64,000 bases of DNA from Candidatus Babeliales bacterium (GTDB taxonomy: Bacteria; Babelota; Babeliae; Babelales; JANWKD01). Positions 1 to 64,000 of this stretch are shown here, piece by piece. The notes beneath the pieces are model-generated. The model searched no databases. It was not told the origin of the DNA and saw only the letters and a list, made by a program, of their open reading frames with translations. The stretch covers positions 288,001-352,000 of the forward strand of contig CAVXJH010000006.1 in the NCBI GenBank assembly GCA_963762115.1. The letters run 5' to 3'. Made by a program: the position numbers and the translations under genes. Each line of letters begins with the position of its first letter. The stretch's first letter is position 1.

Positions 1-1070
1 ATGGACAATCGCATATTACGCTTTTTGACGCACAAACGGGTGAAAAAATTAATACCGTCGCGTTACAAAAAATACAAAATGAAACGGTAAGAGGAATTTC
101 ATATCATCCTGGCGGTATTGTCATTCATAGAATAAATGACCTAAGTAATCAATATTATGCTTTCAATTTTTTAGAATCTATAAATGAAAATTATAGTAAT
201 TTTTTGCAAAAAGCTTCAGGTAAGGTTTGTTTTTTACATCATCTTCTTGAACAAAAGGCAAAACAAAAAAATAAAAATAAAGTATTGGATCAATATATTA
301 ATGAAATATTTCAAAAGTGTAATAGTGATGAAATAGGGTTAATTCATTCTTTATGGGCGCCAGTATGGCTATGTCAACCTAATGAACTTTTAGACCGCAT
401 TGAATACGATATTCAAGAATTCAAAAATAATTCAGTAGCTAATTTAATGGAAGGTGCAGGTTCAGTGCTAAAAAAAACTTTCATGAAGGATTTGGGTGGA
501 GCTGTGATTACTCCTGTTATTGGGATAATGGCAGCAAAATTTACAATGAATTTTTTGAAATCGCAAGGGTATTCAGATAATGTAATAGATACAGTAGGTG
601 CATCAGGAGCGATTGGAAGTTCACTTCTCCACTTCTTGTGGCTAGATAAAAAAACAGCTTGGAAGGCAGGGGCCTATTTTTGGGTGTTTTTTGAATTGAC
701 AACTAAGCCTGATGTTGGTTTTAAAAGAGGAATGTATCCTTTGGCCGCTATTGATTTAGGGGCAACATTGTTAAAAAATAGTTGGATTGCTTATGATAAA
801 TATTCTTTCAAACGCGCACCAGGTTTATTAAAAACAGCTTTGAAATATGCAAAAATTTCTACTTTTTTTACGTATGCGGCCATTTCGCGTCCAGATTTGA
901 TTACCAATCATCCTTATATAAGTTCAGCATTAGGATTAGTTTTTATGCGAAAATGGATGAAACAACATTACCAAATTCCTTCAATAGGTTTTTATAAAAA
1001 AACAGATAAATTTGGGTTTATGTGGTCAGGAAAAAAATTAACATCTAACGGAAAAAAATCATCATGTTAA
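1..1070 (+). CDS. 5'-truncated WD40-like protein with hydrophobic C-terminal domain; paralog of 1064..3598
   Basis: Frame 3 is open from the window start (GQSHITLFDAQTGEKIN...), matching GQSHVTLFDMQTGEKIN in the next gene. Both share CFLHHLLEQ and AIDLGxTLxKNSWxAYDKYSFK. The listed 204 start is an artefact of the window edge. Confidence 0.8.
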   Translation, partial: GQSHITLFDAQTGEKINTVALQKIQNETVRGISYHPGGIVIHRINDLSNQYYAFNFLESINENYSNFLQKASGKVCFLHHLLEQKAKQKNKNKVLDQYINEIFQKCNSDEIGLIHSLWAPVWLCQPNELLDRIEYDIQEFKNNSVANLMEGAGSVLKKTFMKDLGGAVITPVIGIMAAKFTMNFLKSQGYSDNVIDTVGASGAIGSSLLHFLWLDKKTAWKAGAYFWVFFELTTKPDVGFKRGMYPLAAIDLGATLLKNSWIAYDKYSFKRAPGLLKTALKYAKISTFFTYAAISRPDLITNHPYISSALGLVFMRKWMKQHYQIPSIGFYKKTDKFGFMWSGKKLTSNGKKSSC

Positions 1071-3598
1071 TAAGTATACTAGTGCTTTTTCTATGGAGTT
1101 CTTTTGTTTGTGCAATGGAAGAACAAACTTTTTTATCCTCTCAAATAGATGAAATGGATGATTCTAATGGAGTATTATCTTTTGCTGTAGAAAAATTTAA
1201 ATCTTTTCAAGAGCTTGATGGTATAGTTGCAAATGCGGGACTAACTGATTTTTTTAGGCCGCATGACTCATTGAATGTTACTTGGAGTCTTGAAGGAAAT
1301 CGTTTAAGAAGAATATTTGATAGGATTACCTTTAACACCGTTGATAAAAAAAGTATTACTGTTCCCAAAAAAATTTGTTTGCGGTCGAAATTTTTGGAAG
1401 CACTTATTAATTTTCCTCGAGAGCAAGACGACATTCAATTAAAAAAATTAGATTATGCTACCCTGCATAACCTAATTTCCATTTGTTATATTACAAATCA
1501 AAAAAAGTGTGTTCAAAAAAGAATATTAGAGCGTTTATCGCTGGAAGAATCTGCTCAAATATGGGGTGATAGTGATTATTTTATCATTGAAAAAGCACCA
1601 TTTATTCCTCAATATACCCGTTATTTAATGAGTAAAGATGGTGAGAAAGATATAAAAAAGGGTGAATTGAAGTTATTAGGTGATAATTTGGAGAATTCGA
1701 TTGAATGCTGCCAAGAAGAATTAAGAAAGTATCCTCCTAGTTTTCCACAATTTATGGCCGGTATTTTAAAAAAATCTTCATTAACTAGTAAAGCACAATT
1801 TTCAAAAACTGTTCCTTGGACTGTTTTGCATCCAGCTGGTGAACTTTCATCAAGCATATTTACTGTTTTTGAGTATAATATTGGAATATATAATGAATTA
1901 AATAATCAATTGCAGCTTAAGCGACTCAGCCATAAAATAAAAAAAGTTATAACAGTGCTTGATGATAATCAAGTTGTTCTTCTTTTTGAAGATGGCATAG
2001 GAATTTATGATTTAAAAAATAATGTGCTTAAATCATTTATTTCTGATGGCAAAGAAATTTTTTTTAATTCTTCAAAAACAAAAGCAAAAATTATGTACGA
2101 TGAGCCACGGCTCAGATTACCACCCATTATTAATTTTTCCCCTGAGCAAGAAGAGAATTATAATTTTTTTAAGATTGAAATCGGCGGAAATTACATTAAT
2201 ATATATCGACATAGAAGAATTGAATATGAGACTTATGCATGTCATCGTGCTTCAAGTAAGGTAAAAAAAGCAATTTTAGTAGAAGAAAAATCAGGTAATA
2301 TTAAAAAGAATAAAATTGTTTATAGTCAGGAAGGTGCTGAAAGTAGTCAAAGCGCTGTTCTCAAGATTGTTGCCGTTCGTGGTGATGATACTATTAATTG
2401 TAATCATGCAAAACCTATTGATGATTTTTTAATTAATAAAGCAGAATCGATTGTTGTAACGTTCAATAAAGAACATTCACATATTAAAGTATGGGATTTA
2501 GAAACGGGAACATTACTTAACACCTTAAAACAAAGAAATCATACATTGCTTGATCTTTGTATAAGTCCTGATGACACAAAAATTGTTACGCTATCAAACA
2601 ATAACGGACAATCGCATGTTACCCTTTTTGATATGCAGACTGGTGAAAAAATTAACACATTTTCATTACCAAAAATGGAAAATGGAAAAGTAGGAATCTC
2701 ATATCTTTGCGATAAAATTACCATTACATCTAATGGATCATTGGCTATTTATACACTCTTTGATAGAGAAAATATCGATGAAAAGTATATTGAACTTTTG
2801 GAACAAGGCACGGGAAAAACGTGCTTTTTACATCATCTGCTCGAACAAAGAAAAAAACAAAATGTTCTAAATGTTCACTTAGATCAACAAATGTATGAAT
2901 TATATAAAACTTGTGATGAACATGAAAAAAAATTAACCAATTTTTTTTGGGATACGCAAGAATGGTCATATGATCATGATAGTTTTATGGCAAAGGTAAA
3001 ACATGGTCTCCAGATGGTCAAAAATAATCCTACTTTGGTAAGTTTTATGAACGACGCTACTGCAGTAACAAAAAAAACTTTTACTAATAATTTTACTTAT
3101 GTTTCGCTATTTCCCTTTATATCCACTGTTTTATTAGGCTTAGTAATGAAGTCAAATTATATAGAAAGGAGTGGTATTGCCGTGCATCTAGGTGCATTTG
3201 GCGGTGCCTCTTTACCAATTTTTGTTGGTATGCGCTTTAATGATAAAAAAAAAATTATAAATAATTTTTATTATTGGTATCCATTTTTAATTTTGTTAAC
3301 CGGTACTGATTGTAGCTTAAAGGAATTGAGCGGTTTTTTTGCCATTGATTTGGGAGTTACTTTGTTTAAAAATAGCTGGCTTGCTTATGATAAATATTCT
3401 TTTAAAAAAGCACCGTTATTGTTTAAAGTGATGATGAAAAATCCTAAAATTACGAGTTATTTTTCCTATGCAACTGATGTGCGTAGAGATTTACTTGTAG
3501 ATAATTCTGGGGTGAATTTAGTTTTAGGATTATCTTTTATGTATAAATTGATACAGCCTTGGTATTCATTACCTTTTGCCAAAGAAGTACGGTGGTAA
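1064..3598 (+). CDS. Signal-peptide protein with Skp1/BTB-like domain, WD40 repeats and hydrophobic C-terminus (candidate effector)
   Basis: Signal peptide ...VCA-MEE; Skp1/POZ-like ITFNTVDKKSITVPKKICLRSKFLEALI...IQLKKLDYATLHNLI...LSLEESAQIWGDSDYFII; WD40-like IKVWDLETGTLLNTL and ISPDDTKIVT. Confidence 0.65.
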   Translation: MLISILVLFLWSSFVCAMEEQTFLSSQIDEMDDSNGVLSFAVEKFKSFQELDGIVANAGLTDFFRPHDSLNVTWSLEGNRLRRIFDRITFNTVDKKSITVPKKICLRSKFLEALINFPREQDDIQLKKLDYATLHNLISICYITNQKKCVQKRILERLSLEESAQIWGDSDYFIIEKAPFIPQYTRYLMSKDGEKDIKKGELKLLGDNLENSIECCQEELRKYPPSFPQFMAGILKKSSLTSKAQFSKTVPWTVLHPAGELSSSIFTVFEYNIGIYNELNNQLQLKRLSHKIKKVITVLDDNQVVLLFEDGIGIYDLKNNVLKSFISDGKEIFFNSSKTKAKIMYDEPRLRLPPIINFSPEQEENYNFFKIEIGGNYINIYRHRRIEYETYACHRASSKVKKAILVEEKSGNIKKNKIVYSQEGAESSQSAVLKIVAVRGDDTINCNHAKPIDDFLINKAESIVVTFNKEHSHIKVWDLETGTLLNTLKQRNHTLLDLCISPDDTKIVTLSNNNGQSHVTLFDMQTGEKINTFSLPKMENGKVGISYLCDKITITSNGSLAIYTLFDRENIDEKYIELLEQGTGKTCFLHHLLEQRKKQNVLNVHLDQQMYELYKTCDEHEKKLTNFFWDTQEWSYDHDSFMAKVKHGLQMVKNNPTLVSFMNDATAVTKKTFTNNFTYVSLFPFISTVLLGLVMKSNYIERSGIAVHLGAFGGASLPIFVGMRFNDKKKIINNFYYWYPFLILLTGTDCSLKELSGFFAIDLGVTLFKNSWLAYDKYSFKKAPLLFKVMMKNPKITSYFSYATDVRRDLLVDNSGVNLVLGLSFMYKLIQPWYSLPFAKEVRW

Positions 3599-63156: not shown

Positions 63157-64000
63157 AAAAAATAGTTATTATATTAGCATTTATTTTTGTCGGCATGGCT
63201 AATGCTATGCAATTGTCATTATTAGATGGTAAGAAAGTCCATCAATATGTACATACTGATCCTGCAGAAATTGCTTATCTAAAAGGTATGCAAGATTTAT
63301 ATAAACGTATTCAACAGCAAAAATCACGTACTCAAGGAGCAGTTCAATCAGAAGGTCCTACTCGCGGACCAGGTATTGAACAAATATTTTCTTTTCTTAA
63401 TCCTGTTTTTCCTGACTGTAGTCAAACAGAGGATGTTCAATTACGTACTCAAGAAGAACGTACGAGCGGACCAAGTATTGAACAAATCAAGCTAGCGCAG
63501 AATCATAATGTAGAACCATTTGAGAGAAATTTTTATTTGACTGAATATGAAAATGATGAAAAGAAGGAAGTTTCTGCATCGTCATTAATTTTTGATTTTT
63601 TGCAAAAATCTTCAGTAGAAAAAGAAGAAGAACGACAAAATAGAGCGGCTGTTGATCGCCAAGAAAAACAATTGGGAGAAGAGAAAAGTAAATCAAGAAA
63701 AAGAACATTTGAAGAAGCCGCTTCATCTGATGAAAAAAATAGAGGCTCTTCTAAAGAACCTGTTGTACCAAATACAAGCAAAAAAGCTGCAAGTAAAAGT
63801 TCAACGTCATCAGAAAATATGAAGATATGCGGTATTAATGGTTGTGGCTTTAGTACAGTGCTGAGTGATACCATGAGGCGTCATAAAGAAACACCGCATG
63901 AGCAAGAGCAATGTCCTTATCCTGGTTGTGCTTTTTACCATCAATCTAAAGGTGAGTTGTTTCGGCATATTAAGAGATCTCATCTAGAAAAATCTTGTAT
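63153..64000 (+). CDS. Secreted C2H2 zinc-finger protein (tandem copy 3), 3'-truncated by the window
   Basis: ATG at 63153, MKKIVIILAFIFVGMANAMQLSLLDG; open to the window end with CGINGC and CPYPGC; absent from the ORF track because it has no stop. Confidence 0.85.
   Translation, partial: MKKIVIILAFIFVGMANAMQLSLLDGKKVHQYVHTDPAEIAYLKGMQDLYKRIQQQKSRTQGAVQSEGPTRGPGIEQIFSFLNPVFPDCSQTEDVQLRTQEERTSGPSIEQIKLAQNHNVEPFERNFYLTEYENDEKKEVSASSLIFDFLQKSSVEKEEERQNRAAVDRQEKQLGEEKSKSRKRTFEEAASSDEKNRGSSKEPVVPNTSKKAASKSSTSSENMKICGINGCGFSTVLSDTMRRHKETPHEQEQCPYPGCAFYHQSKGELFRHIKRSHLEKSC

Follow-up and report, generated by a model that had tools for sequence, protein, structure and literature searches.

Why should many otherwise unrelated secretory proteins of a single bacterium carry a methionine directly behind the signal peptide? 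The question is raised by a stretch of 64,000 nucleotides from a 'Candidatus Babeliales' genome (GenBank assembly GCA_963762115.1, contig CAVXJH010000006.1, positions 288,001 to 352,000; G000:C6:288001-352000 in the designation used here), which is called the window below. Members of this group rely on protists as hosts. The analysis points to a conserved, clade-restricted Met, usually as Met-Glu, at the expected signal peptidase I cut. This Met is predicted on about a fifth of the proteome, with a bias towards soluble proteins of host-interaction type and orphan proteins. The reading favoured here, with modest confidence, is that the Met forms an N-terminal tag under selection: once the signal peptide has been removed, it would mark soluble proteins, most of them directed to the host.

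The source genome (G000) is a 1.53-Mb assembly of seven contigs with 34% GC; the genomes of its relatives measure 0.8-1.8 Mb. Its ClpB has its nearest named match, at 67% identity, in a 'Candidatus Babeliales' metagenome-assembled genome, and the remaining matches lie near 50%. Open reading frames (ORFs) were called from the first ATG at a length of at least 100 amino acids (aa). Overlaps were removed greedily, yielding 1290 ORFs that cover 85% of the genome. An ORF was termed signal-peptide-like (SP-like) if an uncharged nine-residue window near its N-terminus reached a mean Kyte-Doolittle value of at least 2.2, a lax criterion under which membrane proteins and a few enzymes of the cytoplasm pass as well. 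All signal peptides and cut sites are predictions from our own hydrophobicity and -3/-1 heuristics. By this measure 628 of the 1290 ORFs, about half of those of at least 100 aa, are SP-like. Normally cytoplasmic types of protein occur in the set: a thymidylate-synthase-family protein (window 23151-24122), ATP-dependent DNA ligase, glutamine synthetase, glucokinase, several GNAT acetyltransferases and J-domain proteins. A published report on a cultured representative of the group gives a predicted signal peptide on 44% of coding sequences and on 78% of ankyrin proteins (PMC6561590).

The motif was first noticed in 16 ORFs of the window. All 16 hexapeptides quoted in the first-pass annotation are present, in ORFs that start at the coordinates under which they were listed; those coordinates are ORF starts, and the +1 Met, the first residue after the predicted cut, sits 14-27 codons further in. 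Each of the 16 ORFs shows the same anatomy, in which an MKK-type n-region is followed by a hydrophobic stretch, a small residue and Met. On the 5' side of each start the frame is closed by stops, or a purine run resembling a ribosome-binding site is found. The window has 46 complete ORFs that reach 100 aa, of which 31 are SP-like and 15 of these 31 carry the +1 Met; two listed ORFs fall outside this count, that at 39064 having a different first start and that at 63153 running off the window. The large ORFs at 49-57 kb had been said to lack the motif, and they do: their sites read SYA-DSY, LLA-QEP and LHG-IGN (here and below, a hyphen within a peptide marks the predicted cut).

Genome-wide, a small residue followed by Met ([AGSCT]-Met) stands just after the hydrophobic core in 260 of the 628 SP-like ORFs. 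BLAST sorts these 260 proteins into 192 clusters, the largest of 17 members, so the carriers are mutually unrelated, as the window had suggested. Met followed by E, D, Q, N or H (M[EDQNH]) occurs within 15 residues of the hydrophobic window in 242/628 SP-like ORFs versus 54/662 ORFs lacking such a window, and in 43/628 when a control window 60 residues downstream is searched (Fisher p = 1e-43). Over every candidate site in keeping with the -3/-1 rule, Met accounts for 18% against a background of 1.8%, a 10-fold enrichment; no other residue exceeds 1.6-fold. At residues 19-25 its frequency, otherwise about 2%, reaches 5-8%, and does so in the SP-like set only. Where the first charge follows the core, the pair is 'ME' in 107 of the 628; the runner-up pair reaches 22. 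With GTG and TTG admitted as starts there are 1319 ORFs; 750 of these are SP-like, and 295 of the 750 have the Met, 234 of them as M[EDQNH]. The carriers thus number about 230-300 proteins, roughly a fifth of ORFs of at least 100 aa. On contig C7 (160 kb, 35.7% GC) both the SP-like share (53/149) and the Met share (13/53) are lower than on C3, C5 and C6.

The context of the Met is that of a cleavage site. When 242 M[EDQNH] proteins were aligned on the Met, with -1 left unconstrained, a small residue was found at -1 in 213 (A89 G55 S36 C19 T14), which bears out the proposed signal-peptidase site. Position -3 is mainly L/S/I/A/V/T (L76 S34 I31 A28 V22 T16), -2 is bulky (F40 N34 Y30 H22 L22), and positions -12 to -5 are rich in L/F/I. 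The +2 residues of this set, selected as M[EDQNH], are E122 Q43 N34 H25 D18, with E/Q/K at +3. Where +2 was unconstrained, Glu was found in 114 of the 260 [AGSCT]-Met proteins. In the set that includes GTG/TTG starts +2 is E139, Q37 and D20 of 295, -3 is Leu in 85 and -1 is Ala in 118 (about 40%). The features of Sec/signal peptidase I substrates are present: a basic n-region, an uncharged core of about 8-15 residues, and small residues at -1/-3. No further transmembrane-like segment follows in 218 of the 234 M[EDQNH] proteins (93%). A C-terminal aromatic residue is found in 11/218 M[EDQNH] proteins versus 41/345 of the no-Met class. A position weight matrix built from -10 to -1 proved too loose for placing the cut in the no-Met class, recovering the Met site in 94/191 held-out cases while passing 690/1290 ORFs. 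Judged from the sequences, the motif is a lineage-specific extension of the predicted Sec signal-peptide cleavage junction. The deduced consensus starts with n-region and h-region and continues with [L/I/S/A/V] at -3, a bulky -2 and [A/G/S] at -1; behind the predicted cut come Met at +1, Glu/Gln at +2 and an acidic or polar stretch.

The pattern is not a product of AT-richness, of a huge secretome or of the pipeline, since controls treated in the same way score low. In 200 kb of Escherichia coli K-12 the same script found [AGSCT]-Met in 4/59 SP-like ORFs, none with E/Q/N/D/H next. Near-baseline genomes also occur in the same order: G016 with 5/70 (31% GC, 44% SP-like ORFs), G024 with 0/25 (32% GC), G006 with 2/28 and G007 with 2/21. 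A by-product of base composition is one form of the view that the Met has no present function, and it is countered by G016 and G024, which lack the rule at equal or lower GC and with a similar SP-like share.

The rule is strong in several relatives, counted as [AGSCT]-Met among SP-like ORFs in genome samples. Within family f1 the values are 28/81 for the G000 sample, 44/99 for G001 and 42/99 for G003; in other families they are 44/104 for G020 (f17), 24/69 for G014 (f11) and 27/80 for G022 (f19). Intermediate values were obtained for G056 (9/36, f12), G057 (8/50, f6), G008 (8/40), G027 (6/28), G049 (5/34) and G028 (5/35), and for the very small samples G013 (3/16) and G012 (2/12). In a quick BamA tree, supported by SH-aLRT only, G000, G001, G003, G004, G014 and G020 form one group (SH-aLRT 90), and G022 lies in a neighbouring unresolved polytomy. 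The rule is a derived trait of a Babeliales sub-clade and not of the phylum, because the strong genomes other than G022 group on this tree and other families of the same order are near baseline. By family, f1, f11, f17 and f19 show it strongly, and f13, f21 and f3 lack it. The comparison with other phyla proposed in the first-pass annotation therefore draws the boundary too wide, since the rule does not extend even across the order. The residue at +2 differs by lineage: Glu is preferred in f1 (139 E vs 20 D) and Asp in G020 (14 D, 6 Q, 4 E). In G004, ClpB was matched in pieces at G004:C1:891854-894406, with three in-frame TGA codons in the middle piece; this could be a broken gene or a difference in reading.

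Conservation argues that the Met is under selection. Five paralogue families, with 12, 12, 7, 4 and 3 SP-like members, have the +1 Met in 38 of 38 proteins. Pairwise identity in these families is 42-53% at -8 to -2, 65% at -1, 55% at +2 and 12-36% at +3 to +12; as the alignment was anchored on the Met, the evidence is the presence of Met in every member and not a column of 100%. That all 38 keep the Met amid 12-36% identity indicates a selected residue and not a neutral relic. Of the orthologous pairs from G001 and G000, 14/22 retain the Met and 9-13 of 20-22 the flanking positions, a small sample that is no more than suggestive. An old N-terminus would offer another explanation: the Met might be a leftover initiator in front of which a signal peptide had been placed. 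In SP-bearing J-domain proteins the +1 Met indeed lies no more than 1-4 residues from the DnaJ initiator position (MERTSLYEILEV vs MKQDYYEILGV). Met-Glu is nevertheless not simply an old N-terminus, because residue 2 is Glu in only 27/662 ORFs lacking a signal peptide, as against 139/295 at +2. Mobile signal-peptide cassettes are the third form of the no-function view. One tandem array does share promoter and signal-peptide DNA while its mature parts are unrelated by BLAST. A general cassette of this kind was rejected: upstream and signal-peptide DNA is common to 34 of 33,670 cross-family pairs, nearly all from that array, and the shared DNA stops inside the signal peptide. Whether as relic, compositional effect or cassette, a Met of no present function is very improbable. 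Since the J-domain Met aligns with the DnaJ initiator, the identity of the residue probably does stem from signal peptides added before former start codons, with exaptation later.

Met is also the sole residue that doubles as a start codon. The first-pass annotation had offered a leaderless second translation start as one explanation; the internal ATG would yield a cytoplasmic isoform, or would be the true start, with the signal peptide an artefact of ORF extension. In favour, about a fifth of the Met-class genes apparently start with GTG or TTG, so that the +1 ATG is their first ATG. The translation signals, however, are missing. A Shine-Dalgarno core is present at -18 to -5 of 107/260 first ATGs, 1/260 +1 ATGs and 117/3395 other internal ATGs, and the folding energy over 63 nucleotides is -8.8 kcal/mol around the +1 ATG, as against -4.8 for first starts and -7.9 for the remaining internal ATGs. 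The mRNA is thus neither marked nor open at the +1 ATG. In addition, the upstream part has a full n/h/c anatomy with small residues at -1/-3, such as untranslated DNA would not yield. A second start is the least probable explanation considered, its chance being close to negligible. Four paralogues suspected from BLAST and clustering to be leaderless and to begin at the +1 Met were rejected as such, all having intact signal peptides with a GTG start. They are large ankyrin/WD40 proteins (G000:C3:515763, C6:44655(-), C6:120932(-) and C3:25128), whose frame has its first ATG at the +1 Met or three codons ahead of it. Because the +1 ATG is the first ATG of GTG/TTG-start genes, gene callers that rely on the first ATG would silently remove their signal peptides and undercount the secretome.

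Which proteins carry the Met? Pfam families were assigned to 342 SP-like ORFs within 824 kb, of the 628 genome-wide, at cut-offs of 1e-6 (Met set) and 1e-8 (all others). The Met set of 152 proteins comprises 118 without a family, 11 with ankyrin repeats (ANK), seven of WD40 type, two DnaJ, one RING and one TPR/Sel1. Eight others are soluble, namely BamA, Amidase_3, beta-lactamase, ATP-dependent DNA ligase, AAA, a CPT-type kinase, GNAT and Skp; the Met of Skp probably lies inside the signal peptide, ahead of a classical AFA-A site. Four are membrane false positives (MIP, LspA, SecG and T2SS-C). The no-Met set of 190 proteins comprises 100 without a family, 28 from membrane families, seven ANK, one giant repeat protein and 54 other soluble proteins. 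These last include secretins, peptidases M16, M23, M48, C11 and S9, beta-helix proteins, GH3, lysophospholipase, phosphoesterase, SBP, OmpA, thioredoxins, rotamase, TamB, fasciclin, SOD and GNATs, and seven of the 54 are doubtful signal-peptide calls (DNA pol I, iPGM, G6PD, FtsA, RNase HII, DJ-1 and NUDIX). The +1 Met is found on 22/29 interaction-repeat proteins versus 8/62 proteins of other soluble families (Fisher p ~1e-8, the second class having been entered in the test as 48 and 55, where a recount gives 47 and 54). By domain the values are ANK 11/18, WD40-type 7/7, DnaJ 2, RING 1 and TPR/Sel1 1. The proposed correlation with eukaryote-like domains is borne out by this contrast between ankyrin, WD40, RING, J-domain and TPR proteins and the enzymes and envelope proteins. 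That the motif marks candidate effectors holds as a bias towards host-interaction-type proteins; it is not exclusive to them, as BamA, an amidase and a beta-lactamase-fold protein carry the Met.

The favoured reading, a selected N-terminal tag, can be set out in steps. (i) Signal peptidase I would cut before the Met. (ii) The exported protein would keep a free Met-Glu N-terminus, which would be the identity mark under selection. (iii) The tag would be borne by soluble proteins mostly meant for the host, such as ankyrin, WD40, RING, J-domain and TPR proteins and many orphans. (iv) Enzymes, housekeeping proteins of the envelope and large proteins of surface type would mostly lack it. A reader that co-evolves with the tag is suggested by the preference for Glu at +2 in f1 and for Asp in G020. 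It is tentatively placed in a bacterial step after Sec, for example outer-membrane passage or packaging. On this tentative view the tag may act as a second 'zip code': machinery of the sub-clade would read the free Met-acidic N-terminus after Sec and pass hundreds of proteins into the host. If so, effector delivery would be explained where no injection system is seen here, and a dedicated reader would mean a new sorting code. In practical terms, a mark that separates host-interaction-type from enzyme and envelope proteins would offer an effector predictor for the clade and a way to track down its reading machinery. The sister families that lack the rule would provide a natural experiment.

Several observations weigh against the tag. 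BamA (FLFA-MQP), Amidase_3 (AST-MNE) and the beta-lactamase-fold protein (ISA-MTN) carry the Met and are expected envelope residents; in BamA it is present in G000, G001, G002 and G014 and not in G003, G004, G020 and G022. Seven of the 18 SP-bearing ankyrin proteins are without it, so ankyrin proteins can dispense with the Met. Age confounds the class bias, the Met class being young and fast-evolving and the enzymes old, and the bias is inflated by paralogy, since the seven WD40 proteins are one family. The Pfam cut-offs were unequal; at 1e-8 the 22 become 20. The position of the cut comes from our own heuristics only. Nor does a reader emerge from the two kinds of candidate searched. The signal peptidase LepB (TIGR02227, above cut-off) is encoded twice in tandem, at G000:C3:458072-458779 and 458968-459675. 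The copies are 68% identical, each with its Ser (GSME), Lys (KRVIG) and GDNR boxes. Other genomes, among them G005, G026 and G056, likewise have a tandem pair, and neither the copy number of LepB nor the type of match tracks the rule; several genomes lacking the rule have two copies, and G014 follows it with an apparently single gene. The second candidate is a locus at G000:C6:205648-213919, in which a T2SS-C-like gene is followed by two large secretin genes (~920-950 aa); matching loci occur in 30 relatives. This GspC-secretin-secretin locus is found in all relatives searched, with or without the rule; secretin (PF00263) is present in 31/31 genomes and T2SS-C (PF11356) in 30/31, irrespective of the trait. 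Among LepB and the GspC-secretin candidates, then, no reader co-varies with the trait.

The same observations bear on a rival in which no tag exists. The LepB of the clade would be co-adapted to Met-Glu at P1'-P2', and the Met would serve cleavage efficiency only. As to origin, signal peptides added before old start codons would have made Met the commonest P1' residue, and the peptidase and the weak L-x-G/S c-regions would have grown dependent on it. Taken as a whole, this rival is rather unlikely. In its favour, the motif sits exactly at the predicted cut site, and the c-regions are unorthodox, with frequent Leu at -3 and only about 40% Ala at -1. Housekeeping substrates such as BamA have gained the Met too, and the J-domain Met aligns with the ancestral initiator. 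The two tandem LepB paralogues both have catalytic boxes, and a lineage-specific Glu or Asp at +2 fits a co-evolving enzyme. The Met class is young as well: 4/42 Met proteins of G003 have a G000 orthologue, and ORF 1064 has no homologue outside its genome. Such youth would explain the class bias by age. The evidence on the other side is that about half of the signal peptides, and 54/62 soluble enzymes and envelope proteins, are without Met, so the peptidase does not need it. Retention of Met in all 38 paralogues points instead to a class-specific constraint, and G014, in which LepB is apparently encoded once, obeys the rule.

The tag might also be read by the host. The Met would be retained because residue 2 is large, and would hide Glu, Gln, Asn or Asp that would otherwise act as N-degrons. 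The composition at +2 accords with this in part. E/Q/N/D, the residues of the NatB type, are found in 217/295, with enrichments of about 7-fold for E, 2.5-fold for Q/H and 1.3-fold for D/N. In 264/295 the residue is other than G/A/S/T/C/P/V and would retain Met under the methionine aminopeptidase rule. N-end rules are common to eukaryotic hosts and thus the same for all these bacteria, and still the Met rule is missing from several families within the order; this is a further point against the tag. A NatB or N-degron role, as proposed in the first-pass annotation, may exist; it is weakened by the bias for E over D, by the D-preferring G020 and by the sister families lacking the rule. Of the two forms of the tag, the one read by the host is given slightly less weight than the bacterial step. 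Such probability as the explanations above leave over belongs to one that has not been thought of.

The ORFs of the window that bear the motif are listed in table 1. Residues 1-250 of the first, ORF 1064, match only the protein itself and one paralogue among 5.8 billion proteins. Products encoded in the window include ankyrin, WD40-type and ubiquitin-hydrolase proteins (Pfam).

Table 1. Open reading frames of the window with Met at the predicted +1 position; coordinates are those of the window.
Feature	Predicted junction	Coordinates	Strand	+1 ATG
844-aa ORF, weak WD40-type beta-propeller matches	signal peptide MLISILVLFLWSSFVCA, then MEE	1064..3598	+	1115-1117
489-aa ORF, weak ankyrin matches	...SHTTFA-MQS	6971..8440	-	8360-8362
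511-aa ankyrin protein	...NFSLFC-MND	8672..10207	-	10130-10132
376-aa ORF, absent from the first-pass annotation; weaker case, +2 = Cys	...LCTQNS-MCI	11919..13049	-	12981-12983
168-aa ORF, no Pfam family	...SSQLIA-MEQ	19300..19806	-	19732-19734
161-aa paralogue-like ORF	...SSQLMS-MEN	19913..20398	-	20324-20326
323-aa thymidylate-synthase-family protein (PF00303, E = 8.5e-18), GTG start	...SFMHC-MED	23151..24122	+	23232-23234
716-aa ORF, no Pfam family	...LNSLFG-MHE	30093..32243	+	30159-30161
205-aa ORF	...NTYIFG-MEE	38447..39064	-	38990-38992 (computed from motif index)
200-aa ORF	...SHFSSC-MET	39057..39659	-	39576-39578
357-aa ankyrin protein	...INNAQS-MEE	46670..47743	-	47666-47668
404-aa ORF, no Pfam family	...NAPLWA-MQQ	47826..49040	-	48966-48968
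293-aa ankyrin protein	...CSLSYS-MEE	59396..60277	-	60203-60205
168-aa ORF, first of tandem array	...FSITNA-MNL	60543..61049	+	60597-60599
299-aa tandem-array member	MKKIVIILAFIFVGMANA-MQQ	61268..62167	+	61322-61324
330-aa tandem-array member	...VGMANA-MHI	62164..63156	+	62218-62220
Tandem-array member running off the window	...VGMANA-MQL	63153..63998	+	63207-63209

The tandem array occupies window 60543-63998 and continues into G000:C6 351100-361000 (locus L017), with paralogues of ~250-330 aa. Its signal peptides are nearly identical (MKKIVIILAFIFVGMANA-MQ), and weak C2H2 zinc-finger matches are found. Neighbouring members have 90-93% DNA identity over the promoter and the first 12 codons, yet their mature parts are unrelated by BLAST. 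Four consecutive plus-strand genes of ~590-750 aa lie at window 28242-36764 and encode signal peptides followed by Glu/Lys-rich, coiled-coil-like N-terminal parts. Among these only 30093 (SLFG-MHE) has the +1 Met; genes 32267 and 34533 have the site SFA-GVREL in common. A ubiquitin C-terminal hydrolase is encoded at window 44037-45212 on the minus strand (PF00443, E = 2.7e-45, domain from residue 23). It is not SP-like, and so is a eukaryote-like protein lacking the export signal that most others carry.

How does the motif compare with known systems? Full-text literature searches, which did not cover supplements, found no description of a Met-after-signal-peptide rule. Cleavage sites are not taken up in the two genomics papers on the group that came to light. 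The terms 'cleavage', 'methionine' and 'N-terminal' have no occurrence in the part of PMC6561590 that was available, nor has 'signal peptide' in the corresponding part of PMC4776705. Against known signal-peptide cleavage motifs the variant is new.

The closest relation is to the Sec/signal peptidase I junction with its -3/-1, or 'AXA', rule. The charged n-region, hydrophobic core, small -1/-3, bulky -2 and acidic early mature region are all shared. Classical sites accept nearly any +1 residue, mostly Ala, and Met is rare. Here, in contrast, Met dominates +1 and Glu +2, Leu prevails at -3, and Ala accounts for just some 40% at -1. A likeness to the lipobox, L-[AS]-[GA]-C, is seen in the Leu at -3, G/A/S at -1, a single invariant +1 residue and acidic residues after it; in Bacteroidota lipoproteins an acidic export signal behind the +1 Cys decides destination. 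The invariant residue here, however, is Met, not Cys, so acylation by Lgt and cleavage by LspA cannot apply. Genuine lipoproteins with LSGC-type boxes coexist in G000, for example an OmpA-family protein. The type IV prepilin leader, cut between G and F/M with a later E5, differs in that here the hydrophobic segment stands before the cut and a polar or acidic region after it, in keeping with the 93% of M[EDQNH] proteins that have no transmembrane-like segment behind the cut.

Three eukaryotic systems offer further parallels. NatB substrates begin with Met-Asp/Glu/Asn/Gln, and the +2 residues here resemble them both in class (217/295) and in blocking removal of Met (264/295). NatB, however, acts on nascent chains at the ribosome, and these proteins would arrive finished; moreover D/N are barely enriched, and H is enriched though not a NatB residue. 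In organelles, a presequence can stand ahead of an ancestral start codon, as in the Rubisco small subunit, whose transit peptide is cut before Met. The targeting peptide lies upstream of a retained initiator Met that becomes the mature +1, and the J-domain cases are alike. Those are single genes, whereas the pattern described here is proteome-wide, appears to be selected and has a preferred +2. The PEXEL motif of Plasmodium, RxLxE/Q/D, is processed by plasmepsin V, and the new N-terminus marks proteins for delivery to the host cell. Both systems have a signal sequence, processing, and a new N-terminus whose second residue is E/Q/D (here E139, Q37 and D20 of 295). They differ in that Arg at P3 and Leu at P1 are absent here, Arg not being among the commonest residues at -3/-1. 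The enzyme here would be signal peptidase, the first residue is Met, the organism is bacterial and host export is putative. With soluble ankyrin, WD40, RING, J-domain and orphan proteins as its cargo, the proposed zip code may, tentatively, be a bacterial counterpart of PEXEL.

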